From IMG/VR virus record IMGVR_UViG_3300021963_000025, positions 64,001 to 128,000 of that record: 64,000 nt of DNA, one strand, 5' to 3'. The first letter of the stretch is position 1, and each line of letters opens with the position of its first letter. Below are positions 9,967 through 42,585 of the stretch, piece after piece. A program made the translations under genes and the position numbers. The notes beneath the pieces were generated by a model, which ran no database searches, was not told the origin of the DNA, and was given only the letters and a program-made list of their open reading frames with translations. Source of the stretch: a virus (Duplodnaviria; Heunggongvirae; Uroviricota; Caudoviricetes).

Positions 9967-10266
9967 ATGAATTTAGTATTTCAAGGTACAATTGACGTAT
10001 CAAGTGGAACTCAAATAGATTGTGCGTATGACAATATGCTGATTTCCTTAATGGTTATCAATAACCAAACCGGAAATTATACTCTTACGGTTAAAAGACT
10101 AGAAACTGAGGCCGGAGGTTTAGAAACACTTCTTTATAAATTTCTATTAGACAATGGAGATTCTGTTAGGGACACAACCCAATATAAAATGTCTAAAGGT
10201 GATTATATTCATCTGGAATCTACTCAAGCCGACACAACTTATTATATCTCAGCAGAAGTAGAATGA
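9967..10266 (+). CDS. Small beta-rich protein, probably structural
   Basis: Follows GATAAATA (9947); overlaps the fibre gene start. Confidence 0.55.
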   Translation: MNLVFQGTIDVSSGTQIDCAYDNMLISLMVINNQTGNYTLTVKRLETEAGGLETLLYKFLLDNGDSVRDTTQYKMSKGDYIHLESTQADTTYYISAEVE

Positions 10267-12830
10267 TACAAAGACAGGACAAATATGGAAATACCAGCAC
10301 AGACCTTGGTCCAGTATTAGTTTATGACAAATATGGTAAACTAAAAAAGATAGGAGGATCCGGAGGTTCAGGAACACAAGGTCCGCAAGGACCTGCAGGT
10401 GGACCACAAGGGGTACAAGGTGCTCAAGGATTTCAAGGTCGACAAGGTGTTCAAGGAGATATTGGTGCTCAAGGGTATCAAGGAGACCAGGGATATCAAG
10501 GTGCTCAAGGTAACATAGGAGATCAGGGAACTCAAGGAGTTCAAGGTGATATTGGACCTCAAGGACGTCAAGGAACTCAAGGCGTTCAAGGTAACCAAGG
10601 AGTTCAAGGTAACCAAGGAGTACAAGGAGCATTGGGACCTCAAGGAGCCCAAGGAACTCAAGGTGTTCAAGGTGTTCAAGGAATACAAGGAGCATTAGGA
10701 CCTCAAGGTGCCCAAGGAACACAAGGTGTTCAAGGTGTTCAAGGTAACCAAGGAGTACAAGGAGCATTAGGACCTCAAGGAGCCCAAGGAACTCAAGGTG
10801 TTCAGGGAGTTCAAGGAACCCAAGGTAACCAAGGAGTTCAGGGAGACCAGGGAAATAGTGGTATCTCAGCAGGTGCCGTTTATTACTTTAATCAATCTCA
10901 ATCTTCTGATGTTTCACCATATAAGGTATTAGCAACACAACCAAATGGAGCACAACAAATAGTTACAACTAATTTAACAGGTTCTCAACAAAATGTACTA
11001 GTTTCACAATTTTTAACACCTCAATTAGGTTTTGCTGTAATTCCAGGAGGAACCCAAAGATTCCATTTTCATTATCTTAAACAGGCTTCAAATGATAGTA
11101 TTGAGACTTATGTAACAATACAATTAGCCAATTCTTCCGGGGTTGCAATTGGACCAGTTATTCAAACAGGTACTGATTTAATTGGATGGGTTGATGCATC
11201 CACTCCAGTAGAAATTACATTAGATTTAACCCTATCTACAACAGCAATTGATCCGACAAATCGAATGATCGTTAAGATATATTTAATGAATAATGATAGT
11301 AATGCCCATGTTGTTAATTGGTACACCGAGGGAAATCAATACTATGCATTTGTTATGACGTCTGTTGGTGTTGTTGGAAATCAAGGAGCTACAGGACCTC
11401 AAGGTTCTCAGGGAACTCAAGGTGTTCAGGGAGTACAAGGAGTCCAAGGTGATATTGGCCCTCAAGGTGTAATAGGACCGCAAGGTGCACAAGGAACGCA
11501 AGGAGTTGCTGGAGCCCAAGGTACAACAGGAGCCCAAGGACCACAAGGAGTTCAGGGAACTCAAGGAGTTCAAGGTGTCCAAGGAATTCTTGGTAACTTT
11601 GGAGGAGATTCTGTTTTAATGACAATGAATGGTTACACTGGCTTCTCCGGAGGTATGGCACCCGGTATTATTGAATTTTGGAATGGTACAAATCCTGCAA
11701 CAACTACTCAATTAGCTATTAGTAATACTGATGCACAAGGAGGTAACATTACTAATTGGAATAATGCCCTGGTAAGTAGTACTAATCCAATTAAAGGTAG
11801 TTTAAGAATAAGTGTTAATGGTTCTTCAAATAATTATGCAGATTATCAAATAAATTCAGGAACCAATAGCACAGGTCGTGAAGTATTGGATGTTACTTAT
11901 ATAGGAAGCAATGGTACTATATCTACAGGAGATTCTTTGGTTGTTTCTTTTGCTAGAAGTGGAGACTTTGGTCCTCAAGGACCTGGTGCATCAATTGTTG
12001 CTAGTGACTATGTAATGAAAGCAGTTAAAGGTGGTAGTACGCAAACAATATTAAACAACAATAACAATCAAGTTATAACATTTGTTGATGATTTTGACCC
12101 TCAAAACTGGTGGACTTCTAATAAGTTTCAACCAACAATCACAGGTTATTACATTTTGCAACTTGCAGTATGGTGGGATGCTGGAGCCATTACAACTAAC
12201 CAAACAAATATACAGTTGCAAAAGAATGGTAATACTCAAGTGGCTATTCAACAAACTCAAATTGTTACTGGTGCAGGATACGGACAAGAAATTGATACTA
12301 TAGTATATTTTAATGGAACTACTGATTATGTTGAAGCTACGGCATACACTGGAAATACAACATCACAAAATATAAATGGTACCAATACAGGTACATGGTT
12401 TACCGCATCACTAATAACAAATGGTACAGGACCTCAAGGGTTCCAAGGACCTACTGGAGTAACACCTTCAATTCCAAGAAGTTTTGGAATTACAATGGAC
12501 GGTGCAGGTACGGTTATATCAACAGGAATCCAAGGAGACATACAAATACCATATTCAATGACTATTGACTCTTGGAGCCTTATTTCCGATGTTGTTGGTT
12601 CAATTGTGGTAGATGTTTGGAAAGATACTTACGCAAATTATCCAGCAACTATTGCAGATACTATAACAGGTTCAGCAAAACCAACAATATCTTCTAGTAA
12701 TAAAGCCCAAAGTTCAACACTAACAGGATGGACAACATCTGTTAATGCTGGCGATATAATAAGATTCAATGTCGATTCAGTTTCGACAATAACAAAAGCA
12801 ACCCTAATAATACAAGGCTTACAAGTATGA
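10263..12830 (+). CDS. Collagen-like fibre protein with a C1q-like domain
   Basis: Long G-x-Q tracts; ITGYYILQLAVWW..IQLQKNG..VYFNGTTDYVE C1q-like segment. Confidence 0.8.
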   Translation: MIQRQDKYGNTSTDLGPVLVYDKYGKLKKIGGSGGSGTQGPQGPAGGPQGVQGAQGFQGRQGVQGDIGAQGYQGDQGYQGAQGNIGDQGTQGVQGDIGPQGRQGTQGVQGNQGVQGNQGVQGALGPQGAQGTQGVQGVQGIQGALGPQGAQGTQGVQGVQGNQGVQGALGPQGAQGTQGVQGVQGTQGNQGVQGDQGNSGISAGAVYYFNQSQSSDVSPYKVLATQPNGAQQIVTTNLTGSQQNVLVSQFLTPQLGFAVIPGGTQRFHFHYLKQASNDSIETYVTIQLANSSGVAIGPVIQTGTDLIGWVDASTPVEITLDLTLSTTAIDPTNRMIVKIYLMNNDSNAHVVNWYTEGNQYYAFVMTSVGVVGNQGATGPQGSQGTQGVQGVQGVQGDIGPQGVIGPQGAQGTQGVAGAQGTTGAQGPQGVQGTQGVQGVQGILGNFGGDSVLMTMNGYTGFSGGMAPGIIEFWNGTNPATTTQLAISNTDAQGGNITNWNNALVSSTNPIKGSLRISVNGSSNNYADYQINSGTNSTGREVLDVTYIGSNGTISTGDSLVVSFARSGDFGPQGPGASIVASDYVMKAVKGGSTQTILNNNNNQVITFVDDFDPQNWWTSNKFQPTITGYYILQLAVWWDAGAITTNQTNIQLQKNGNTQVAIQQTQIVTGAGYGQEIDTIVYFNGTTDYVEATAYTGNTTSQNINGTNTGTWFTASLITNGTGPQGFQGPTGVTPSIPRSFGITMDGAGTVISTGIQGDIQIPYSMTIDSWSLISDVVGSIVVDVWKDTYANYPATIADTITGSAKPTISSSNKAQSSTLTGWTTSVNAGDIIRFNVDSVSTITKATLIIQGLQV

Positions 12831-31447: not shown

Positions 31448-31474
31448 AAGCTGGCTAAAAGGTCAGCTTTTTTT
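31448..31474 (+). terminator. Rho-independent terminator
   Basis: aagctggc...gtcagctt followed by a T-tract. Confidence 0.65.
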
Positions 31475-31546: not shown

Positions 31547-33517
31547 ATGACCAAGAAGACAAATACTCCTTTCATTGACCAATTCGGAGAGGACTTAACC
31601 AAACTAGCGATGGATGGGAAACTTGACCCTATCATCGGAAGAGAAAAGGAAGTATATAGAATATGCCAAATCCTTTCTCGTAGAAAGAAAAACAACCCAA
31701 TTATTTTAGGGGATCCTGGTGTTGGTAAAACTGCACTAGTTGAGGCAATTGCCCAAAGAATTGTCGAAAAGAAAGTTGCAATGACTCTTCTTAATAAACG
31801 AATAATCGCCCTGAATATTGCAAACGTGGTAGCAGGTACAAAATACCGCGGAGAATTCGAAGAGCGAATGAAAAACATCGTCGATGAACTTAAAGAAAAC
31901 CCAGACGTTATTGTGTTTATTGATGAGATTCACACGATTGTAGGAGCTGGTGGTGTAAGTGGTTCATTAGACGCTAGTAACATCTTAAAGCCAGCATTGG
32001 CAAGAGGACAAGTACAATGTATTGGTGCCACAACAATCGATGAGTACCGTGAAAATATTGAAACAGATGGGGCTCTTACCCGAAGATTCCAAGAAATCTT
32101 TATAGACCCACCATCTCTTGATGATGCAATTGAAATCCTGGATAGAATCAAACCGAACTACGAAGACTTCCATTCAGTATCATATACACCTGAAGCAATC
32201 AAAGCATGCGTAATGCTATCTGACCGATACATCACTCAACGAGAATTACCGGATAAAGCAATTGACATTATGGACGAGGCAGGTGCAAAAGTCCACCTTA
32301 AAGAGGTTAAAATTCCGGAAATCATTAAAAAACTTGAAATCGAGGCTGACACTTTAAAATCTCAAAAATTGAAAGCTGCCGACGCGACTGATTATGAAAA
32401 AGCCGGTAAATTCAGAGACCTTGAAATTAGCAAACGAGAAGATATAACAAAAAGAACCAAAGAATGGGAGGAGACGCTTAGACTAAATAAGAAAGCAGTA
32501 ACTTATGAAGATATTGCTGAAGTAATTTCAGAATCTACTGGAATTCCGGTAACAAGAATGACCGACGATGAAAGTAGAATTGTTATCGACATGGAAAACG
32601 AATTAAAATCTATGATTATTGGACAAGATACTGCGGTTGAAGGTCTATGTAGAGTTATTAAAAGAAGTCGAACTGGTGTAAGTTCATCTAAAAAACCTAT
32701 CGGTTCATTTATGTTTATTGGACCTACTGGAGTTGGTAAAACTGAAACTGTTAAAGCACTTTCCGAATATTACTTCGGAAGCGAGGATTCTCTAATTAGA
32801 ATCGACATGTCAGAATACCAAGAAAAGTTTAATGTAAGTAGACTTATTGGTTCTCCTCCGGGATATGAAGGACATGAGGATGGTGGACAGTTAACCGAAC
32901 AAGTTAGACGTAAACCATATTCTGTAGTTCTATTTGATGAGGTTGAAAAAGCCCACCCAGATATTTTCAACATATTGTTACAAGTTTTAGACGAGGGTCG
33001 TTTAACCGATACTCTTGGTAGAACTATTGACTTTACGAATACTATCATTATTATGACTAGTAACGTTGGAGCAAAACGAGTTGCAGAATTCGGAGCTGGA
33101 ATTGGATTCTCAAGTTCAAGTTCTACTGCTACCCATAAAATGCAAATGGAAACAGTTATTCGAAAAGAACTTAAAAACAAATTCGCACCGGAATTCTTAA
33201 ATAGACTTGACGAAATTGTATTGTTCGACGGACTAAAACAAGAAGATGTTGCTAAAATCGCCGAAATCGAAATCGAAAAGGTAATTGAGAGAATGGCTGA
33301 GCAGGATTATGTTATTAAAGTTGCAAAAACTGCGATAGTATTTTTGGCAGAGCGTGGATATGATGCCCAATATGGAGCTAGACCTCTTAAAAGAGCAATT
33401 CAAACATACGTCGAAGACTTATTAGCGGATTGTATATTATCTAAAGAGGTAGTTAAAGGAAGTAAAGCCTACACAATATCGCATAAAAAAGGAGATGAGA
33501 AACTTTCTGTTAAATAA
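31547..33517 (+). CDS. clpC: ClpC-like Hsp100 AAA+ ATPase lacking the N-terminal domain
   Basis: GDPGVGKT/IDEIH, GPTGVGKT/LFDEVEK, UVR-type M-domain DYEKAGKFRD, IGF loop GAGIGF. Confidence 0.9.
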   Translation: MTKKTNTPFIDQFGEDLTKLAMDGKLDPIIGREKEVYRICQILSRRKKNNPIILGDPGVGKTALVEAIAQRIVEKKVAMTLLNKRIIALNIANVVAGTKYRGEFEERMKNIVDELKENPDVIVFIDEIHTIVGAGGVSGSLDASNILKPALARGQVQCIGATTIDEYRENIETDGALTRRFQEIFIDPPSLDDAIEILDRIKPNYEDFHSVSYTPEAIKACVMLSDRYITQRELPDKAIDIMDEAGAKVHLKEVKIPEIIKKLEIEADTLKSQKLKAADATDYEKAGKFRDLEISKREDITKRTKEWEETLRLNKKAVTYEDIAEVISESTGIPVTRMTDDESRIVIDMENELKSMIIGQDTAVEGLCRVIKRSRTGVSSSKKPIGSFMFIGPTGVGKTETVKALSEYYFGSEDSLIRIDMSEYQEKFNVSRLIGSPPGYEGHEDGGQLTEQVRRKPYSVVLFDEVEKAHPDIFNILLQVLDEGRLTDTLGRTIDFTNTIIIMTSNVGAKRVAEFGAGIGFSSSSSTATHKMQMETVIRKELKNKFAPEFLNRLDEIVLFDGLKQEDVAKIAEIEIEKVIERMAEQDYVIKVAKTAIVFLAERGYDAQYGARPLKRAIQTYVEDLLADCILSKEVVKGSKAYTISHKKGDEKLSVK

Positions 33518-33543: not shown

Positions 33544-34398
33544 ATGAAAACATTCTCACACCAATTCAAACATATCATTTCAGATATAAAAATTCACGGA
33601 GAGGTCTCTAAGCCAAGAGACCTCGAAGTTACCGAATTACTTTATGCCGGTTATCAAATTAATCCTAAAGAACCATTTGCTAATTTTAATAGCAGAGAGT
33701 TTAATTGGAAGTATTTTGCCGGTGAATTAGCATGGTACCTTAATAAAGATACCAACATTGATTACATTAATAATTTTTCTGGATTCTGGAAAAACATAAC
33801 AAATCCTGGAACAAACGAAATTAATTCAAATTACGGTTCTCTTCTTTTCGGAGAACAATTACAATGGGTAGTCGATTCTCTTAAAAAAGACAAGAACACT
33901 CGCCAAGCAATTGCTTTCTTAAATCAGCCAAAATATCAGTTTGAAGGTAACAAAGATTTTGTATGTACTATGTACCTAAACTTTTCAATCAGAAACAACA
34001 AGCTAGATATGAAAGTTCAAATGCGTTCTAATGATATATTTTATGGGCTTACATTCGATGCACCATTCTTTGCATTTGTCCATCAACATGTTTATCTTTG
34101 GTTAAAATCAACCTATCCTGAATTAGAACTTGGAGTATACCACCACTGGGCAGATAACATTCATTTTTACGAGAGACATTTTGAACTAGCCGAAAAAATT
34201 GTTAATGAGCCTCTCCATGAAAAACAATATTCAATGGAGTTAATTGAACCACTTTTCAATATTGAAAATGGAATAATGCATTTGACTTCTCACGGAATTT
34301 CGATGATAAATAATATAAACGATACGATAGATAACGTCTTGACTAAAGAAACATATATTAACATATTATCAGAATATCTTAATATAAGAGAACTATGA
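33544..34398 (+). CDS. Thymidylate synthase-fold enzyme, T4 gp42 dCMP hydroxymethylase-like
   Basis: EINSNYG, DFVCT, MRSNDIFYGLTFD (Asp where ThyA has Asn). Confidence 0.8.
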   Translation: MKTFSHQFKHIISDIKIHGEVSKPRDLEVTELLYAGYQINPKEPFANFNSREFNWKYFAGELAWYLNKDTNIDYINNFSGFWKNITNPGTNEINSNYGSLLFGEQLQWVVDSLKKDKNTRQAIAFLNQPKYQFEGNKDFVCTMYLNFSIRNNKLDMKVQMRSNDIFYGLTFDAPFFAFVHQHVYLWLKSTYPELELGVYHHWADNIHFYERHFELAEKIVNEPLHEKQYSMELIEPLFNIENGIMHLTSHGISMINNINDTIDNVLTKETYINILSEYLNIREL

Positions 34399-34700
34399 TT
34401 GAGTGCATGAAAACCAAACTAAATATTCCAGAATTCTATATAAATGGTAAGAATTTCGATTCGATTACGAACGATTGCGAATTCCATAATAGAATTGTCG
34501 ATTTTATCGAGATGAATATTGAAAACGAAACTGAAGATACTTTGCTTTGTTATTTTGTCCATGAAAACGGAGCTATACAATACGCAGATCTTCCAAAAAG
34601 CTCATATAAGCAATCAATACTAAAAAGCCTGGAATTCTATACATTCCATGAAAAGTACGAGAGATGCGCTCAAATTAAAAACCTATTAAAGAAATTATAA
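34395..34700 (+). CDS. Small protein with a C-terminal UVR-like motif
   Basis: Ends FHEKYERCAQIKNLLKKL. Confidence 0.65.
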   Translation: MIECMKTKLNIPEFYINGKNFDSITNDCEFHNRIVDFIEMNIENETEDTLLCYFVHENGAIQYADLPKSSYKQSILKSLEFYTFHEKYERCAQIKNLLKKL

Positions 34701-35386
34701 TGAATCACGGAAAAGAATTCGAAAGATACGCAATGCTAGACAAGGGTGTAAGTTCAATGAACATGCACTACTATAAAAAACAAATCGAAAATTCAATGAC
34801 TCCATATATCTTGGAAGAGAGAGAAATGAGAGCAACTCAATTGGACATTTTTTCGAGATTAATGATGGATAGATTATTGTGGGTTGCAGGACCTGTGAAT
34901 GACAATATGTCAACTATAGTTCAAGCTCAATTAATGTTTTTAGATAGTACTGATGACCGAGATATAACGATGCATATTGACAGTCCTGGAGGTTCAGTAA
35001 AATCTGGACTTTCTATGGTCGATGTTATGGAATGGATTAAATCCGATATCAGAACTGTAAACACTGGTATGGCTGCTTCGATGGGTTCAGTACTACTAGG
35101 AGCTGGAACCAAAGGTAAAAGAAGTTCACTAAGACATTCAACAACGATGTTACACCAATCTTCAGGAGGATTCAGTGGAAATATACAAGACGCTGAAATC
35201 GACTGGGCAGAATGGCAAAAAGTTAACAAAGAACTATTTAATTTATTAGGAGCATATTGTGATAAAAAACCAGAACAGGTTATGAAAGATGCGACTAGAG
35301 ATTTATGGTTAAACGCCGAAGAAGCGCTTAGCTATGGTATAATCGACGAGATTATTAATCCTGGTAAATTAAAATCTAAAAAATAG
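34700..35386 (+). CDS. clpP: ATP-dependent Clp protease proteolytic subunit
   Basis: DIFSRLMMDR, IDSPGGSV, GMAASMG, MLHQ; Bacteroidota-style N-terminus. Confidence 0.95.
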   Translation: MNHGKEFERYAMLDKGVSSMNMHYYKKQIENSMTPYILEEREMRATQLDIFSRLMMDRLLWVAGPVNDNMSTIVQAQLMFLDSTDDRDITMHIDSPGGSVKSGLSMVDVMEWIKSDIRTVNTGMAASMGSVLLGAGTKGKRSSLRHSTTMLHQSSGGFSGNIQDAEIDWAEWQKVNKELFNLLGAYCDKKPEQVMKDATRDLWLNAEEALSYGIIDEIINPGKLKSKK

Positions 35387-35584
35387 ATGAAAGTCCATAT
35401 ATATGTACACGCCGAAGAGCTTGAATACTTGAACAAAATAATCAAAGGAAAGGCAGAAGCAGGAGAATACAAAGTTACGATATCTCCAATATACTTTAAA
35501 GATTCATACTTAATTGATATGCCCTATTCCGATTTTGTAAGATTAAACGACCAAAAAACATTTACTTCATTAATTTCATTATGA
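35387..35584 (+). CDS. Hypothetical protein
   Basis: 65-aa ORF abutting clpP. Confidence 0.55.
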   Translation: MKVHIYVHAEELEYLNKIIKGKAEAGEYKVTISPIYFKDSYLIDMPYSDFVRLNDQKTFTSLISL

Positions 35585-35892
35585 CGAACAGAGAAAAACA
35601 AAGAGAATTATTTGTTGAATTAATTAACCATCAACTCAAGGACCACGGCGTAACATACGAAGATGTTAAAACCAATCCATCATGGTACATGGAATATAAG
35701 ACTACTCCAGAGAAGGAAGAGGCATTTATTAAATATGCTGTCGAAAGAATCAGAGAAGTCCTTAAAATTTCAAAAGCTGCTGCCGAAAAAGAGGCAAGCT
35801 GGTTTATTCTACAATGGGGACTAACAACTGTTAACCCTAGAAAAACTCCAAACAAGGTGCAAACTGACGTTTCTAAAAGAACCAAATCTTAG
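35581..35892 (+). CDS. Hypothetical protein
   Basis: 103-aa coupled ORF. Confidence 0.6.
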   Translation: MTNREKQRELFVELINHQLKDHGVTYEDVKTNPSWYMEYKTTPEKEEAFIKYAVERIREVLKISKAAAEKEASWFILQWGLTTVNPRKTPNKVQTDVSKRTKS

Positions 35893-35953
35893 ATTATAGT
35901 AATATAAAGAAGGAATACTCATACCACCTATTATTCTTGAGATAAATACAGGT

Positions 35954-36655
35954 ATGAACGTCTTTGAACCTAATTGGCTAACTGAGCCTCCTCATGACTA
36001 TGAGCTAAAATATTACAAGTTATTAGCCGGAATCGATAAAATTAAAAAATTGATTTCTGCTAATAGTTTGTATTCTGCTATTTTAGAGGTAGAGACCGAA
36101 CTTGAAAAGTTATACAATATCAAATACGGTAAAGACGAAATTGAAAGCAAAACTAGAATAATCACTGGAATCGATGTTGATACAATGTCACTAAAATACG
36201 ATTATCCAGAAGAAAGCGAGGCAATCAATTCAATGTATGATGTATGTGATATTGCAATTGATAAATTAGAAGACCTATATCGAGTTATCCGAGATAAATG
36301 GAGACTTGTAGAATCTCAATGCACAATAACTGAAATTCCTGATAAAAAGCATCTCAACACTAAAGGGTATATTTTTTACATTGACGTTACCAGTCAAAAA
36401 ATCCACGTCTATTCTTATGTGGAACCTTCATCTTTTAAAATAAACTGGAGCGAGTTTCAACTAAAAAAAGTTGAAGAGCTAGAGAACTCAATTAAAGAAA
36501 TTTCTAAATTCATCGAAAAGGCAGAATTGGAAAGCACTTCTTATAGATTCTTTAGATTCGATACAAAATTTAAAACAGCCGCCCCACCATATGCTGATTG
36601 TATGTTACCAATTATGAAGAGCATGCTCTTCAACCGAATCAAACATGGTATCTAA
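35954..36655 (+). CDS. Hypothetical protein
   Basis: 233-aa ORF after GATAAATA (35941). Confidence 0.65.
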   Translation: MNVFEPNWLTEPPHDYELKYYKLLAGIDKIKKLISANSLYSAILEVETELEKLYNIKYGKDEIESKTRIITGIDVDTMSLKYDYPEESEAINSMYDVCDIAIDKLEDLYRVIRDKWRLVESQCTITEIPDKKHLNTKGYIFYIDVTSQKIHVYSYVEPSSFKINWSEFQLKKVEELENSIKEISKFIEKAELESTSYRFFRFDTKFKTAAPPYADCMLPIMKSMLFNRIKHGI

Positions 36656-36693
36656 AATATATAAACTAGTTTCATTTTTATAATATAACTAAT

Positions 36694-38532
36694 ATGAAAA
36701 TTAGTATAATAACGCGATGTACTCGTACTCAAAATTTGGAGATTATTAAAGAATCTATTTTTAATAACGTTCCAAATGGATTCAACCTGACATGGCACAT
36801 TTTATTCGACACTGCCGTCCTTAAGGACATCGATGCAGAACTATTAAGTCGACTTAACACTGATAATATAGTACTCCATTTTAAAAAGGGAGATGAATGG
36901 GGAAATTGGAATCGATTAAATGATTTAATCCAACAAATTTCTGGATGGATTTATAATTTAGATGATGACAACATCCTTCATGAAGATTTCTATCAAAAAG
37001 TTTCTGAAACAATAGCCAATAATCCAAAATGCTTGGGTTTAATATTCTCACAAAAGGTTGGAGGAATCGATTTTTCAGGAGTTGATGTTAGAGAAGCAGA
37101 CCCAAAAAATACAGTTGTCCAAAAAATTGATTTGGCGCAATGGTTAATACATTCAGAACTTCACTTAAATAATCTATATGGCAGCGGTTACCGAGCAGAC
37201 GGTGAATTTATAGAATCTCTGTATAAAGAGAATCCGGATTCTTTCGTTTTTATCAAAGACATATTATGTTATTATAATGCATTAGAAAAGAAGTCAACCG
37301 CAAAAGTTCCAAAAATTCTTTATGTTGGAACTGATAAGCCAGAACTTAAGTCTTTAAAAATATTAGACTATGAGGCAGACAATCTTGAAGTACTTCATTT
37401 AGAATCTGATGAGAATATTGGAGAACATTTGGCATCATTTAAACCAGATTGTATAATTACAAGAGAGGAACATTGGAACAGATTTAAAAACATGGCGTCA
37501 ATGCCACTCCAGTTTCGTAGAAAATGGATTAATCTTTCTGAAAATGAGTCAATTGAACATGTCGGGCAAATAGCATACCAATGTTCTATGGAGAGTATGT
37601 TGAACCCAGATGGATTGGAAGACAGCTCAATGATTTCATATTTTACCCCAATATATAATACTGGAGATAAACTATTCAATACCTACCAATCCTTGGTGAA
37701 TCAAACGTACAGCAATTGGGAATGGGTAATTGTAAATGATTCGACGGATGGAGGTAAAACATTAAAAATAGCAGAATCTATCGCGGCAAAAGACCCGAGA
37801 GTACGCCTTTACGATTTTAGAGAAAAGAGTGGTGGTAATATTGGTGAGGTTAAATGGAGATGTTGTGCACTTGCTAGAGGGTTTATTTTAGCAGAATTAG
37901 ACCATGACGATTTATTAGTTCCATGGTGTACCGAAGACCTTTATAAAGCGGCTAAAAAACATCCAGAAGCTGGATTCTTTTTTAACGATACGGTTGAAGT
38001 TGACGAGAACTGGAATTCTTTAACATATCCTGATGGATTTGCTCTTGGATATGGTTCATACCGAAAGGAAGAGTATGCTGGAAAGATGATGGATGTTTCT
38101 AATCAGCAAAATATTAATCCTAAAACAATTAGACATATAGTTGGAGTTCCAAATCATGTAAGAGCTTGGAGACGTTCTACCTATTTTGAAATTGGAGGAC
38201 ATAATAGAAGTCTTACAATAGCCGATGATTACGAATTGGTTGTAAGAACCTTCTTAAAAACAATAACATGTAAAATACCAAAACTAGGATACGTTCAATT
38301 CTTGTACAATAATGCAAATGGACAAAATACTCACAATTTATCCAGAGCAGATATTCAAAGAAGAGTTCGAACAATAGGTTACTACTATAACGAGCAAATT
38401 AAAAAACGTTTCGAAGAGTTAGGATTAAAAGATTGGGCTTATGATGAAAATCCAGGAGCACCGTTAAATACTGTTTCAAGATATGGCCAAGAAGAGATGG
38501 CCGCAAATATAATATACAACGAATATGACTGA
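36694..38532 (+). CDS. Glycosyltransferase with two GT2 (GT-A) domains
   Basis: ISIITRCTR..YNLDDDN; FTPIYNT..WEWVIVNDSTD..AELDHDD..ADDYEL. Confidence 0.85.
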   Translation: MKISIITRCTRTQNLEIIKESIFNNVPNGFNLTWHILFDTAVLKDIDAELLSRLNTDNIVLHFKKGDEWGNWNRLNDLIQQISGWIYNLDDDNILHEDFYQKVSETIANNPKCLGLIFSQKVGGIDFSGVDVREADPKNTVVQKIDLAQWLIHSELHLNNLYGSGYRADGEFIESLYKENPDSFVFIKDILCYYNALEKKSTAKVPKILYVGTDKPELKSLKILDYEADNLEVLHLESDENIGEHLASFKPDCIITREEHWNRFKNMASMPLQFRRKWINLSENESIEHVGQIAYQCSMESMLNPDGLEDSSMISYFTPIYNTGDKLFNTYQSLVNQTYSNWEWVIVNDSTDGGKTLKIAESIAAKDPRVRLYDFREKSGGNIGEVKWRCCALARGFILAELDHDDLLVPWCTEDLYKAAKKHPEAGFFFNDTVEVDENWNSLTYPDGFALGYGSYRKEEYAGKMMDVSNQQNINPKTIRHIVGVPNHVRAWRRSTYFEIGGHNRSLTIADDYELVVRTFLKTITCKIPKLGYVQFLYNNANGQNTHNLSRADIQRRVRTIGYYYNEQIKKRFEELGLKDWAYDENPGAPLNTVSRYGQEEMAANIIYNEYD

Positions 38533-38743
38533 TACTTTTGTAAAAATTTGGGTTCATAATAGAGAATCTGATTTAATGATGGATTTTTTATTAGATAGAG
38601 TTTCTGAACCACCCCACTACATAATTGACTATAAAGAGGTGCCAAAATCTATCACAGGAGGGTGGATTGAAATGAATATAACGTATGAAAGGTACCTTAA
38701 ACTTCGACAGTCTCATGACCATGTAGATACTACTCACATGTAA
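38525..38743 (+). CDS. Hypothetical protein
   Basis: 72-aa coupled ORF. Confidence 0.55.
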   Translation: MTDTFVKIWVHNRESDLMMDFLLDRVSEPPHYIIDYKEVPKSITGGWIEMNITYERYLKLRQSHDHVDTTHM

Positions 38744-38774
38744 ACTTTTTTATTTTTTCATATATAATTAGTAT

Positions 38775-39023
38775 ATGGCAAAAGATAAAAAAGAACCTAA
38801 AATGTATGTAGTTAAACCAAAGATTGGCGAGGACTACTATTTTAAATTCGCTGGAAGTATCATGTATGGTCCAATAGTTTCATTAAATGAAGCATTGACT
38901 AAAATCCATGGAGTTCCTCACTATTGGCTGACTCAAAAGTCAGATAAAAGTGCGAAAAAATGCACATATCCAGTATCAATTTATAAGATTTTTAAAGATT
39001 TAAACGACTCAAAGAATGTATAA
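38775..39023 (+). CDS. Hypothetical protein
   Basis: 82-aa ORF. Confidence 0.55.
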   Translation: MAKDKKEPKMYVVKPKIGEDYYFKFAGSIMYGPIVSLNEALTKIHGVPHYWLTQKSDKSAKKCTYPVSIYKIFKDLNDSKNV

Positions 39024-39747
39024 TACCACCGAATTAAAGTCAATGTTATTTATTGACATTGAAACAACTTCAGAATATCCAACTTATGAAGAATTTTGTT
39101 CTAAAAGACCGGGAGCAGTAAAGCACTGGGCAAAAAAAGCAGAACAACACAGAAATTCTGAATCCCATTTAGCAGAACTTTCAGATGCTGAAATGTATAC
39201 TCACATGTCAGCTCTTAGTCCTGAATTTAGCAAGGTTATTGTAATTTCTATGGGACAAATTAAATTTCTAGATAATTTTATAACATCAAAAATCCGTTCG
39301 TTTTACGGAGATAATGAGCGAGAAATTCTTAAAGAGTTTATGGGTACGGCGCAAGCTGTTTTTAATCAAAGTCCTTCAATTCAATTTACTGGACATAATA
39401 TTAAAAACTTTGATTTTCCGTATCTATTAAAACGAGCTATTGTGAACGGAGTTGCGACACCCCATCAATTTCATTTACAAAAGAAAAAACCATGGGAAAA
39501 CTGTCTTGTAGATACCTATGAAATTTGGAAATTTGCAGGTTGGAATAGCGCATCTCTAGATTTGATTTGCGATACTCTAAATATTCCATCTCCTAAAACT
39601 ATAATGGAGGCAAGTAGCACTACTGAAGAGTATTGGAATGGTAATCTTGAAAAGATAAAAACATATTGCGAAGGAGATGTTAAAGCAACTATGAACGTGA
39701 TGCTTAAAATATCCGGAATGGATATGGTTGATGAAGTACCATTTTAA
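39016..39747 (+). CDS. DEDDy 3'-5' exonuclease (PolB-exonuclease-related)
   Basis: FIDIET, GHNIKNFDFPY, YCEGDV. Confidence 0.9.
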   Translation: MYNTTELKSMLFIDIETTSEYPTYEEFCSKRPGAVKHWAKKAEQHRNSESHLAELSDAEMYTHMSALSPEFSKVIVISMGQIKFLDNFITSKIRSFYGDNEREILKEFMGTAQAVFNQSPSIQFTGHNIKNFDFPYLLKRAIVNGVATPHQFHLQKKKPWENCLVDTYEIWKFAGWNSASLDLICDTLNIPSPKTIMEASSTTEEYWNGNLEKIKTYCEGDVKATMNVMLKISGMDMVDEVPF

Positions 39748-39774
39748 ATTGTTAATAACTTTTTAAATAAAAGT

Positions 39775-39807
39775 TTTACCGTGTCAGGAATTTGTATTAT
39801 ATTTACA
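39775..39807 (+). promoter_or_regulatory. Bacteroidota-type early promoter
   Basis: TTTA-N19-TATATTTACA; upstream AATTGTTAATAAC. Confidence 0.8.
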
Positions 39808-39830
39808 TATCAAATTAAAACCTTATAATC

Positions 39831-40121
39831 ATGGACGAAAACTTTGACCTTTTTGAAGACCAAGAAAACGAAATCGACACTATTAAAAAAGAAGCCGAAA
39901 TGAATAACATAATGTATGATTTGAAAATCAAACTTGCAAATGAGAATTATGATTCGATAATTTCTAAAGGAGTTGATTTTAAATTAATGGAAAGACAAAA
40001 CATCGAGATTGAACCCGTTGTTAAAATTCTCGGAGACATGTTAGAGCTCTTTGAAGAGCTTGAAGAGTACGAAAAGTGCGCAGAAATAAATAAAATACTT
40101 AAGAAAGCGCCGGTCCTATAA
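39831..40121 (+). CDS. Small protein with a C-terminal UVR-like motif
   Basis: Ends ELEEYEKCAEINKILKK. Confidence 0.65.
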   Translation: MDENFDLFEDQENEIDTIKKEAEMNNIMYDLKIKLANENYDSIISKGVDFKLMERQNIEIEPVVKILGDMLELFEELEEYEKCAEINKILKKAPVL

Positions 40122-40132
40122 GACCGGTTTTT
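40110..40132 (+). terminator. Rho-independent terminator
   Basis: ccggtc-ctataa-gaccgg followed by a T-tract. Confidence 0.7.
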
Positions 40133-40167
40133 CTTTAATATATAACATACTAATAAAGTATATCAAT

Positions 40168-40377
40168 ATGGACGAGGAAATATTAAAGAAGATTGCGGAC
40201 AGTCTAGAAAGAATCGCAATTTGCATGGAAAATAAACAATTGAGAGAGATTGCAACCTATCGAAAAGGTCAGGCTGCCCTTATTGCTGAGAAAAAAGCAG
40301 ATAATAAAAAGCAGGCAAAATCTCAACCAATTATTCCAGTAGTAAAACAAACAGTTAGAGTTAGAAAATCCAATTAA
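40168..40377 (+). CDS. Hypothetical basic protein
   Basis: 69-aa ORF. Confidence 0.55.
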   Translation: MDEEILKKIADSLERIAICMENKQLREIATYRKGQAALIAEKKADNKKQAKSQPIIPVVKQTVRVRKSN

Positions 40378-40386
40378 TAAACTCTA

Positions 40387-41214
40387 ATGAATTACTACGA
40401 AACTCTTAACGTTTCAAAAGATGCCACTCCAGAAGAAATCAAAAAATCTTATAGGAAGCTTGTAAAAGAGCATCATCCCGACAAAACAGGGGGAGACGAT
40501 TCAAAATTTAAACAAATATCCGAAGCATACGAAACTCTTTCTGACCCTGTCAAAAAAGAGCAATATGATAATAAGTCTAGTGGATATTCCTCATTCAATA
40601 ACTTCCGCAGAAATCAGGAATACACATCAGCTTGGCAAAGTGCATTTTCCGGGTTTGGTGGTGATTTTAGTGACATGTTTAATCAGTCATTCGGCGGAGA
40701 GGCAAAAGGATATGACGTCCGAATTTCAATTAGCATAACTCTCGAAGAATGTTACGAAGGTGTTAGAAAGTATATTGACGTCGGGACAGGTGGATTTAAT
40801 ATCAATGTCCCTCGAGGAATTCCAAATGGAACAAAACTTAAGATTCCAGGTAGAGGAGCTAGCCATCCTATAAATTCATCTGCACCTCCTGGTGATATTA
40901 TTCTGACTGTCAATGTTTTACCAGACCCTGAACTTATTGTTAACGGAAGTGATATTTATGTTGACTTAAACCTAAGCTGGATTGACCTCTTACTTGGAGG
41001 AGAATTTGAAGTCCATACCAAACTAAATTCCATAAAAATTAAGGTTCCTCAAGGTTCCCATGATTCAAAACTCCTGCGAGTTGTTGGAAAAGGAATGCCA
41101 ATATATAACGCAGAAGGATTCGGAAATCTTATGGTAAAACTTAGAACACTTCCCGTAAATTTATCCGAATCTGAAATAGAATTACTCAAAAAAATAAAAA
41201 ATCAAAATGAGTAG
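40387..41214 (+). CDS. dnaJ: DnaJ-class (type II) co-chaperone
   Basis: NYYETL..IKKSYRKL..HHPDK J-domain, G/F-rich region, C-terminal domain, no Zn finger. Confidence 0.92.
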   Translation: MNYYETLNVSKDATPEEIKKSYRKLVKEHHPDKTGGDDSKFKQISEAYETLSDPVKKEQYDNKSSGYSSFNNFRRNQEYTSAWQSAFSGFGGDFSDMFNQSFGGEAKGYDVRISISITLEECYEGVRKYIDVGTGGFNINVPRGIPNGTKLKIPGRGASHPINSSAPPGDIILTVNVLPDPELIVNGSDIYVDLNLSWIDLLLGGEFEVHTKLNSIKIKVPQGSHDSKLLRVVGKGMPIYNAEGFGNLMVKLRTLPVNLSESEIELLKKIKNQNE

Positions 41215-41461
41215 CATTGAAGAAAGTCCGGAAGAATCTAGAAAATTTATAAAAAAACTACACGAGGCCTCCAAAGAAGACATGATGGATGCAATGTACT
41301 CCTCTATTATTAATGGCAGAATGGGTGCCTTAAAGTATGATGGAAGTATTAAAGAAAAAATAGAAGGAGTCCAAACAGTTCTTAATTTTTTTAAAGAGAA
41401 TGAAGACTATGAAAAATGTAAAGAACTCAAGAAAATTATCGATGACCTATCGGTAATATAA
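41207..41461 (+). CDS. Small protein with a C-terminal UVR-like motif
   Basis: Ends ENEDYEKCKELKKIIDDL. Confidence 0.65.
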   Translation: MSSIEESPEESRKFIKKLHEASKEDMMDAMYSSIINGRMGALKYDGSIKEKIEGVQTVLNFFKENEDYEKCKELKKIIDDLSVI

Positions 41462-41555
41462 TATAGTAACCTTTTTAGGCCGGTTATACCAGAAATAGCC
41501 ATCTATTAATATATACTATATGCAACAATTGTTGCTTTAAAAACATTACGGCAAG

Positions 41556-41813
41556 ATGGGAGATATAACAGGGGAGGAAAGAGATTCTCTGATGAGGTCC
41601 AGCTACTACATACTTACTAGAAATTTTACAAAAACCATTAATAGATTTGTTGTTTATAATGATGGTAGTCACACAATAGACATTCCGCACGGAATCGGGC
41701 AGCGAAGTAAATTCGTAGATGTCCTAATAGAATATTTTGTTGAGTTAGAGGAATATGAAAAATGTGAATCGCTCAAAAAATTAAAAGAGCTAGTCATGAT
41801 GACTGGCGACTAA
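41556..41813 (+). CDS. Small protein with a C-terminal UVR-like motif
   Basis: Ends ELEEYEKCESLKKLKEL. Confidence 0.65.
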   Translation: MGDITGEERDSLMRSSYYILTRNFTKTINRFVVYNDGSHTIDIPHGIGQRSKFVDVLIEYFVELEEYEKCESLKKLKELVMMTGD

Positions 41814-41829
41814 ATATATACAAATTTGT

Positions 41830-42585
41830 ATGCAAAAAAGAACGGTGGAAAGTAAATCAAGGTCAACTAAGGCAAAACCAAAAACTACAACTTCTAATCC
41901 GGTTGGAAGACCTAAAAAGACAGTAGTTAAAGAATTAGATTTGGTAGGAGTTCAATTAAAACCAGGACAATATGATTATTTTGAAAAAATTAAAAAGAAT
42001 GAAATAACATTCTGTTCAGGTCCAGCAGGTACTTCAAAAACATTTACTGCATGCTACACTTCACTATGGTTACTAGCAACTCAAGCAGTTTCAAAAATTA
42101 TATTATGTAAGCCAATTCAAGAATCCGGAGAAAAACTTGGATTCTTACCTGGAGATATTGCAGACAAGGTCGACCCTTACATGCAATCATACATTTCGAA
42201 CTTTAAAAAAATAGTAGGTGACGAATTAACAGAAGGACTAATTGCTTCAGGCGCTATTGAATTTAAGCCACTTGCATTTATGAGAGGTGATACATTTGAC
42301 GATTCATTCATGATTCTAGACGAAGCCCAAAATGCTTCATTTAAGCAATTAATGTTATTTACAACCCGTATGGGTAAAAATTCTAAAGTTCTGGTAACTG
42401 GAGATGTTAGTCAATATGATATACCAAAAGCAAGTGCCGGACTTCCAGGATTCATGCAATTGATGAAAGGAATTAAAGGAACTGCAGAACATGTTTTTGA
42501 GAATAAAGATATTGTAAGAGCTAAAATACTTCAAGACGTTGTAGACCGATACGACAAATGGAGAGTTGAAAATCCTGAAAAATAA
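41830..42585 (+). CDS. phoH: PhoH-family ATPase
   Basis: GPAGTSKT, LGFLPG, FMRGDTF, ILDEAQN, TGDVSQ. Confidence 0.95.
   Translation: MQKRTVESKSRSTKAKPKTTTSNPVGRPKKTVVKELDLVGVQLKPGQYDYFEKIKKNEITFCSGPAGTSKTFTACYTSLWLLATQAVSKIILCKPIQESGEKLGFLPGDIADKVDPYMQSYISNFKKIVGDELTEGLIASGAIEFKPLAFMRGDTFDDSFMILDEAQNASFKQLMLFTTRMGKNSKVLVTGDVSQYDIPKASAGLPGFMQLMKGIKGTAEHVFENKDIVRAKILQDVVDRYDKWRVENPEK

Follow-up and report, generated by a model that had tools for sequence, protein, structure and literature searches.

The UVR domain (PF02151) is a hairpin of about 35 amino acids (aa) known from the C-terminus of UvrB, from UvrC, from the M-domains of ClpC unfoldases, from McsA, which carries UVR motifs, and from the plant CLPF/EXE/UVR proteins. 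Hairpins of this kind mediate both UvrB–UvrC and M-domain–M-domain pairing (PMC8889267; PMC5699869). Here we compare with these systems a stretch of viral DNA of 64,000 nucleotides (nt), hereafter the window, which comprises bases 64001–128000 of the 199,669-base-pair (bp) linear IMG/VR viral record IMGVR_UViG_3300021963_000025 and encodes four small proteins that share a C-terminal tail. An earlier note on this DNA had called the tail UVR-like and had proposed that the four proteins are adaptors for a phage ClpC that lacks its N-domain. As we show below, the proteins belong to a large phage-restricted family, and the tail is best described as a diverged UVR-type hairpin; we judge it slightly better than an even chance that the hairpin is a pairing handle, with each paralogue serving its own gene block.

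The M-domains of Staphylococcus aureus ClpC contact each other head to head through F436, R443 and D444, flanked by E435 and E437, and F436, at the tip, is also contacted by MecA and needed for its binding (PMC5699869). ClpC from which the N-domain has been deleted (Delta-N ClpC) is proteolytically active only when the M-domain contacts are broken as well (PMC12583610). The known ClpC adaptors, i.e. MecA, McsB/McsA and the phage-encoded adaptor-like protein SPO1 Gp53 (PMC6873191), are small accessory proteins, like those studied here; they act on ClpC/ClpP or share a locus with the genes for them, and they depend on the ClpC N-domain. In plants, CLPF carries a UVR motif, and UVR-domain proteins are enriched among the interactors of plastid CLPC1 (PMC8889267).

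Results

Four small phage proteins share a C-terminal tail

Four open reading frames (ORFs) of 84–101 aa, all on the + strand of the window, end in the common pattern L.[FY]F...E.YE[KR]C..[IL].K. We refer to their products, recognised by ORF and motif, as sA to sD:

34395–34700, + strand: sA, small protein of 101 aa, tail EKYERC
39831–40121, + strand: sB, small protein of 96 aa, tail EEYEKC
41207–41461, + strand: sC, small protein of 84 aa, tail EDYEKC
41556–41813, + strand: sD, small protein of 85 aa, tail EEYEKC, directly 5' of phoH

The C-terminal sequences are ...EKYERCAQIKNLLKKL for sA, ...EEYEKCAEINKILKKAPVL for sB, ...EDYEKCKELKKIIDDLSVI for sC and ...EEYEKCESLKKLKELVMMTGD for sD. In each of them E.YE[KR]C sits 10–15 residues before the stop, and across all six frames of both the window and the whole record this element is confined to the four proteins; judging from residue frequencies, 0.02 occurrences of the tail motif would be expected in the window by chance. 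In good agreement with the earlier note, all four ORFs are present at the starts it gave, one directly before clpP and three around dnaJ.

A profile of the four proteins retrieved 544 clusters (90% identity) of 81–106 aa, all unannotated. These divide into four orthologous groups, which are repeatedly found on the same long contigs. An origin of sA–sD as chance ORFs is ruled out by these hundreds of conserved orthologues. When the four groups were compared profile against profile, the alignment was limited to the last 24–57 columns, and the N-terminal parts are therefore not detectably related; the 'unrelated N-termini' of the earlier note are thus largely right, the likeness between groups being confined to those final columns. 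sA–sD are paralogous members of one large small-protein family, and sD belongs over its full length to the most widespread subfamily. Members of the crAss type resemble sD along the whole length.

Evidence for a diverged UVR-type hairpin

The AlphaFold2 (AF2) model of sD contains helices at residues 6–22, 49–63 and 67–82, the last two joined by a turn at 64–66, with a mean predicted local distance difference test score (pLDDT) of 76.5 that reaches about 90 within the hairpin. The model of sA (mean pLDDT 60.6) shows the same helix-turn-helix, with helices at residues 68–86 and 89–100, which places its hairpin at about residues 68–100 (nt about 34596–34697). On these models the tail is a real domain of ~35 aa with a predicted helix-turn-helix fold.

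For a comparison with UVR we assembled a profile of 28 UVR domains, taken from ORFs of UvrB, UvrC, nuclease or ClpC size. Aligned with hhalign, the tail matched this profile over 35 columns in register with a score of 21.1 (probability 70%, E 4e-5), as against 8.4 for the reversed profile and a mean of 6.9 and a maximum of 10.8 for 60 column shuffles. The tails and UVR share hydrophobic positions at -13, -9, -6, 0, +3, +6, +10 and +13, where 0 is the aromatic residue, i.e. the same hairpin of ~35 aa in the same hydrophobic register. Six family members with C-x-x-[ILV]-R-D match Pfam UVR itself at 16.2–21.6 bits, one of them above the 21.5-bit cut-off. A shape search of the ESM Atlas with the sD model returned three viral clusters first, and among the later rows UvrB/UVR, CEP104/UVR and ClpC; the ClpC row and a cluster with 15% UVR members align to sD residues 45–85 (41 residues) with a root-mean-square deviation of 1.9–2.0 Å. 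In a feature search, the nearest annotated cluster was a viral UVR-bearing one, which we take as a lead only.

The tip of both the tails and the UVR domain reads acidic-aromatic-acidic, and a small residue comes after it: E-[YF]-E-x-[A/C]. Relative to the signature [FY]-E-x-A-A-x-L-R-D, sA–sD keep the aromatic residue, the Glu, a small residue at +3 and Leu/Ile at +6, and depart from it in having Cys for Ala at +3, the first Ala of canonical UVR, and K/N and K for R at +7 and D at +8. The loss of R-D, mostly to K/x-K, extends from these four to most tails, R-D/N being retained in only 3 of 143 representatives. Further differences from canonical UVR are a Phe in place of the Ala at -6 that packs against +3, and the near-invariance of E-E-Y-E-K-C; moreover, unlike known UVR domains, the tail module is carried by small phage-only proteins without any other known domain. 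The controlled profile-profile match, the intermediates that match Pfam UVR and the shape search together support the description of the tail as UVR-like, and, as far as sequence comparison and modelling go, point to a diverged, phage-only UVR-type hairpin, an EEYEKC variant.

Other structural searches were negative. A profile search of PDB sequences gave no match at E ≤ 10, and Foldseek with the sD model against the PDB gave nothing below E 3.9, the rank-2 hit, a McsA/McsB chain at E 4.1, being not significant. VIA-align against 48,161 chains returned generic helical matches only, with Z up to 6.6, which is below the meaningful level for helical proteins. Among the weak matches of the sD model were BAG domains, three-helix bundles for Hsp70 nucleotide exchange, at a non-significant Z of 5.6–5.9; sD adjoins dnaJ. 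A single TPR-like repeat was considered and dropped, since both the register and the controls agree with UVR.

A large, unannotated, phage-restricted family

Among 1.84 billion representative proteins, a tail profile of 41 positions picked out, at E ≤ 1e-3, 637 clusters (50% identity). With few exceptions these proteins have 40–140 aa and carry the module at the extreme C-terminus; a few longer ones carry it elsewhere. The consensus is roughly h..MI.YF.ExEEYEKCa.L.Kh..K, in which EEYEKC is nearly invariant and the Cys is kept in 142 of the 149 best matches. Our scan of IMG/VR yielded at least 205 confirmed tail loci; in 185,579 prokaryote species, represented by one genome each, there were three, all on contigs of metagenome-assembled genomes. 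The family is essentially restricted to phages and unannotated. No clear member was found in GenBank phages other than in LR756502.1, tblastn searches of 50,697 GenBank phage records with sD and with a crAss-type member gave no match, and the search of PHROGs gave nothing below E 0.004 and no family of known function. Likewise, a full-text literature search found no paper mentioning an EEYEKC-type motif, and one for the UVR domain with bacteriophage found nothing about phage UVR proteins. Most module-bearing contigs have one copy, and some have two or three clustered copies.

Several members depart from the usual architecture. P0195, P0263 and P0267 (208–313 aa) have the EEYEKC hairpin near the N-terminus (residues about 48–90), and the P0195 cluster has 18 members, on contigs of up to 92 kb. 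P0028 (106 aa), of the sD type, matches sD up to the Cys and then continues into a basic tail with an AT-hook-like RGRPKK; a frameshift or a fusion may account for this form. In L025, a large, phage-like JGI contig of 250 kb, positions 10001–10732 encode a protein of 243 aa whose hairpin lies near the C-terminus; its neighbours are an intein-split ribonucleotide reductase, PolB, a resolvase with a Cas12f-like TnpB and a Tad6-like gene.

Layout of the locus and gene linkage in relatives

The viral record has an estimated completeness of 74%, the G+C content of the window is ~34%, and the closest GenBank relatives are two huge phages, both uncultured, with genomes of 634 and 642 kb. Around the four small genes the window contains the following features:

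31448–31469, + strand: terminator-like hairpin 5' of clpC (consensus scan only)
31547–33517, + strand: clpC, ClpC-type double-AAA+ unfoldase without N-domain, 656 aa (Pfam domains)
33544–34398, + strand: thyA, thymidylate-synthase-fold gene between clpC and sA (Thymidylat_synt, E 5e-20)
34700–35386, + strand: clpP, ClpP peptidase (CLP_protease, E 3.6e-56)
40109–40128, + strand: terminator-like hairpin at the end of sB, the last gene before it (consensus scan only)
40387–41214, + strand: dnaJ, DnaJ-type co-chaperone with J domain and DnaJ_C (Pfam)
41830–42585, + strand: phoH, PhoH-like ATPase (homology)

The start of sA overlaps the stop of thyA (ATGA) and its stop overlaps the start of clpP (TAATG); sA is translationally coupled to thyA on its 5' side and to clpP on its 3' side. 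sB lies 266 nt upstream of dnaJ, sC starts 8 nt inside the end of dnaJ, and sD follows sC. The two terminator-like hairpins, one before clpC and one closing sB, suggest on the strength of a consensus scan two transcription units, clpC...sB and orf69-dnaJ-sC-sD-phoH, divided by the hairpin after sB. A sigma-70 promoter scan showed no excess of sites (60, compared with 52.7 ± 8.9 in shuffles). The 69-aa ORF between that hairpin and dnaJ (window 40168–40377) has neither a family match nor an EEYEKC tail.

Four IMG/VR relatives preserve full synteny from clpC through the RNase HII gene, and the order clpC-thyA-sA-clpP is kept in all relatives whose ClpC is 78–98% identical; orthologues of sA take the same position in L007–L010, L026 and L027. 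In L011, sA-like relatives lie among sugar-nucleotide genes. When we clustered the flanking genes of 80 module loci, the module stood with the terminase gene terL and a 180-aa upstream gene in about 20 of them, the encoded TerL being 40% identical to crAss-like and Flavobacterium phage terminases, and phoH lay directly 3' of the module in 11 (12 by tblastn comparison); dnaJ and an HD-like gene were the other recurrent neighbours. In marine crAss-like phages (L028, L039–L041, L046, L048, L050, L061 and others) a tail gene of ~90 aa is found between the conserved 180-aa gene and terL, and the TerL of these phages shares 40% identity with that of crAss-like phages from the gut.

Seen from the other side, the module is directly 5' of phoH in 8 of 10 phoH-bearing records; of the other two, one has it 1.5 kb upstream and one at a great distance. 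Across the IMG/VR loci the PhoH proteins range from 35 to 78% identity to the window copy. The pairing recurs on metagenomic phage contigs unrelated to this phage: in L149 (46–790) the module abuts phoH, and in L150 (2199–3946) dnaJ, module and phoH follow one another with overlapping stop and start codons, which may represent a conserved DnaJ/UVR-like/PhoH trio. Over distant lineages, the sD type tracks phoH and often dnaJ, not clpC.

The phage ClpC and its M-domain

The phage ClpC contains the Pfam domains AAA, AAA_lid_9, UVR (residues 267–295, nt about 32345–32431), AAA_2 and ClpB_D2-small. As the earlier note had said, it has no N-domain: the sequence begins at the D1 linker, and Clp_N has no match anywhere in the 199.7-kb record at E ≤ 1, for which reason we also dropped the idea of a split-off N-domain encoded elsewhere in the genome. 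This N-less ClpC represents a large conserved clade, the 120 best homologues having 637–671 aa and 76–98% identity. In the two huge phages ClpC is 53% identical, and its open frame is 709–719 aa long. The M-domain sequence TDYEKAGKFRD (residues 281–291) lies within the Pfam UVR match and bears out the likeness to the tails, with Cys in place of Ala, that had been pointed out for TDYEKAGKF; its residues Y283, R290 and D291 are invariant across 24 homologues. The D2 pore-loop motif at residue 441 (window 32867–32869) reads PPGYEG. Among 23 relatives (76–96% identical) position 441 varies, with PPGYVG as the majority consensus, and the Glu may be peculiar to this copy or to few copies.

On the whole record Pfam UVR matches ClpC and one 251-aa ORF only. 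The latter, situated outside the window (G000:C1:31034–31789; L005:844–1599), ends in a canonical UVR tail, ENFERAAELRDAI, scores 24.6–28.1 bits against Pfam UVR and has no other recognised domain. Counting the ClpC M-domain, the 251-aa ORF and the four tails, this phage encodes six UVR-type hairpins.

Docking of a tail on the ClpC M-domain, which the earlier note had suggested checking by co-folding, was assessed for sD. The co-fold of ClpC(1–345) with sD lends the idea weak support, scoring 0.34 as compared with 0.00 for the best of three controls, with runs that agree in 100% of contacts and a partner pLDDT of at least 69. In calibration, 58 of 80 solved complexes and 2 of 110 mismatched pairs passed the same mark. 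Only 7 of the 80 solved complexes, as against both mismatches, passed it with a score of 0.60 or less, and a pass in this range therefore misleads more often than not if the pairing was not already likely.

Discussion

In this study we have described a phage-restricted family of small proteins whose members differ in their N-terminal parts and share a C-terminal module that is probably a diverged UVR hairpin. The explanation that we favour, if only as somewhat more probable than its negation, is that the hairpin acts as a protein-protein pairing handle, as UVR hairpins do in UvrB/UvrC and in the ClpC M-domains, and that each paralogue serves its own gene block. Its counterpart would be either a second copy of itself or a different UVR-type hairpin, and pairing would carry the variable N-terminal part to the partner. 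Such a handle would not be specific to the phage ClpC: sA would serve the clpC-thyA-clpP block, and sB, sC and sD would serve dnaJ and phoH. Some observations weigh against this explanation. Pfam UVR matches neither sA–sD nor 40 orthologous tails at E ≤ 10, and for this reason the kinship to UVR rests on the profile-profile match, the intermediates and the shape search. The neighbours of the module are heterogeneous (TerL, phoH, dnaJ, the HD-like gene, clpP) and, while fitting a generic handle, indicate no single function. Finally, the near-invariance of E-E-Y-E-K-C, with a Cys where any small residue would pack, goes beyond what simple self-pairing would call for and hints at a specific external partner or at chemistry.

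In the adaptor hypothesis of the earlier note the tails would dock on the M-domain of the N-less phage ClpC, and each small protein would bring a different substrate. Spelled out as an adaptor or activator model, they would cap the M-domain tip, free ClpC from a resting state that the M-domain mediates, and deliver substrates of their own to ClpCP. The tail is UVR-type, as is the M-domain, and its invariant E-Y-E aligns with E435-F436-E437 at the M-domain tip of S. aureus ClpC, where F436, R443 and D444 occupy UVR-motif positions 0, +7 and +8. The head-to-head contact (PMC5699869; PMC12583610) is made by just such an E-aromatic-E element, exactly what the tails keep, and we infer that a free hairpin could compete for it; the contact also uses R443 and D444, and this R-D pair is absent from most tails. 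The phage ClpC has its own Y283, R290 and D291 invariant. Since Delta-N ClpC is inactive unless its M-domain contacts are broken, an N-less ClpC would need something that acts on the M-domain. The overlapping stop and start codons in the conserved clpC-thyA-sA-clpP order of the close lineage, the UVR-domain proteins among CLPC1 interactors, the precedent of SPO1 Gp53 and the weak co-fold signal for sD all point the same way. However, the association does not hold at the level of the family, which is distributed largely independently of ClpC, the outcome that the earlier note had named as refuting its proposal: members are found in phages that have neither Clp ATPase nor ClpP, although in such phages a host ClpC could be the partner. 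In a set of 33 viral contigs that bear the module and are 30 kb or longer, which include fragments, so that absence from a contig is no proof of absence from the genome, AAA_2 occurs in two, both times in a ClpX-sized ORF of about 400 aa, and ClpP in one; both Clp ATPase and ClpP are absent from all six complete genomes (rated at least 90% complete, 87–120 kb). The sB/sC/sD-dnaJ-phoH block is present on contigs of 55–77 kb without a Clp gene, the sD type follows phoH rather than clpC, and the sA-like relatives of L011 lie amid sugar-nucleotide genes. In the huge phage LR745206.1 (634 kb), whose ClpC is of the N-less type and 53% identical, tail matches are weak and partial (best E 5.5e-4), and in LR756502.1 the tail members are more than 250 kb from clpC. 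The tails also lack any sequence or fold match to MecA, McsB or ClpS (Pfam, PHROG, PDB sequences, Foldseek), and they differ from the known ClpC adaptors in that those require the N-domain that this ClpC lacks and in that the family mostly occurs without phage Clp genes. An adaptor role for ClpC is thus possible but rather unlikely: what survives of the proposal is the synteny in the close lineage, the match to the tip and the weak co-fold signal. Unlikelier again is a broader version, in which EEYEKC hairpins are free mimics of the M-domain tip that would cap either the N-less phage ClpC or a host ClpC, break its resting state and tether cargo by their N-termini.

A host partner could also be sought more widely, if the hairpins were part of a host-takeover or counter-defence toolkit aimed at UVR-bearing host proteins (the ClpC M-domain, UvrB, UvrC and the DUF151-UVR nuclease). 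The family is confined to phages and common in those that have no Clp genes. Where a lineage can be placed, it points to hosts among the Bacteroidota, the TerL beside many members being 40% identical to that of crAss-like/Flavobacterium phages, and the nearest GenBank relatives of the record are huge phages. Targets would be at hand: in 13 Bacteroidota genomes we found UVR hairpins in ORFs the size of UvrB and UvrC, in others of about 210 aa, and in ClpC-sized ones (839–872 aa), which all 13 genomes have. Four to six UVR-type hairpins in one phage, each coupled to phage enzymes, resemble internal wiring more than an assault on a single host target, and we regard a host target as improbable. 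A stronger competitor, doubtful though it remains, would assign the sD type to the PhoH-like ATPase, or to a DnaJ/PhoH pair, as its dedicated accessory subunit, with a tail that serves for dimerisation only, and would reduce the sA–Clp neighbourhood to lineage-specific synteny. It draws on the position of the module directly 5' of phoH in most phoH-bearing records, over the whole range of PhoH identity and in the tight arrangements of L149 and L150, and on the complete 119-kb genome G024, which has the module-phoH pair and no Clp genes. Yet the module occurs without phoH in 25 of the 33 long contigs and in 4 of the 6 complete genomes, module and phoH are 78 kb apart in G030, and sA, sB, sC and the crAss-type members beside TerL are left unexplained. 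Least probable of all, and by our estimate very much so, is a chemical role of the invariant Cys in an intermolecular disulfide, in redox sensing or in metal binding at a dimer interface. Its prevalence at a position where canonical UVR always has Ala, next to invariant Glu residues, would suit such a role; however, the position is +3 in the core of the hairpin register, where a small buried residue is expected, and the Cys is single, with no conserved His or Cys partner.

If the hairpin is indeed a pairing handle, a single short motif that is easy to recognise would identify hundreds of small phage proteins, all unannotated, as modular partners in interactions, and E-E-Y-E-K-C offers a concrete set of residues for mutation. 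Were the tails to act on ClpC, they would show how an AAA+ unfoldase without its N-domain becomes active and how Clp proteolysis might be commandeered by phages, and if they do so as mimics of the M-domain, the family would represent a very large unrecognised group of phage hijackers or adaptors of ClpC that work independently of the N-domain. Finally, the recurrent dnaJ-module-phoH arrangement gives a first handle on the long-unexplained phage PhoH-like ATPase.

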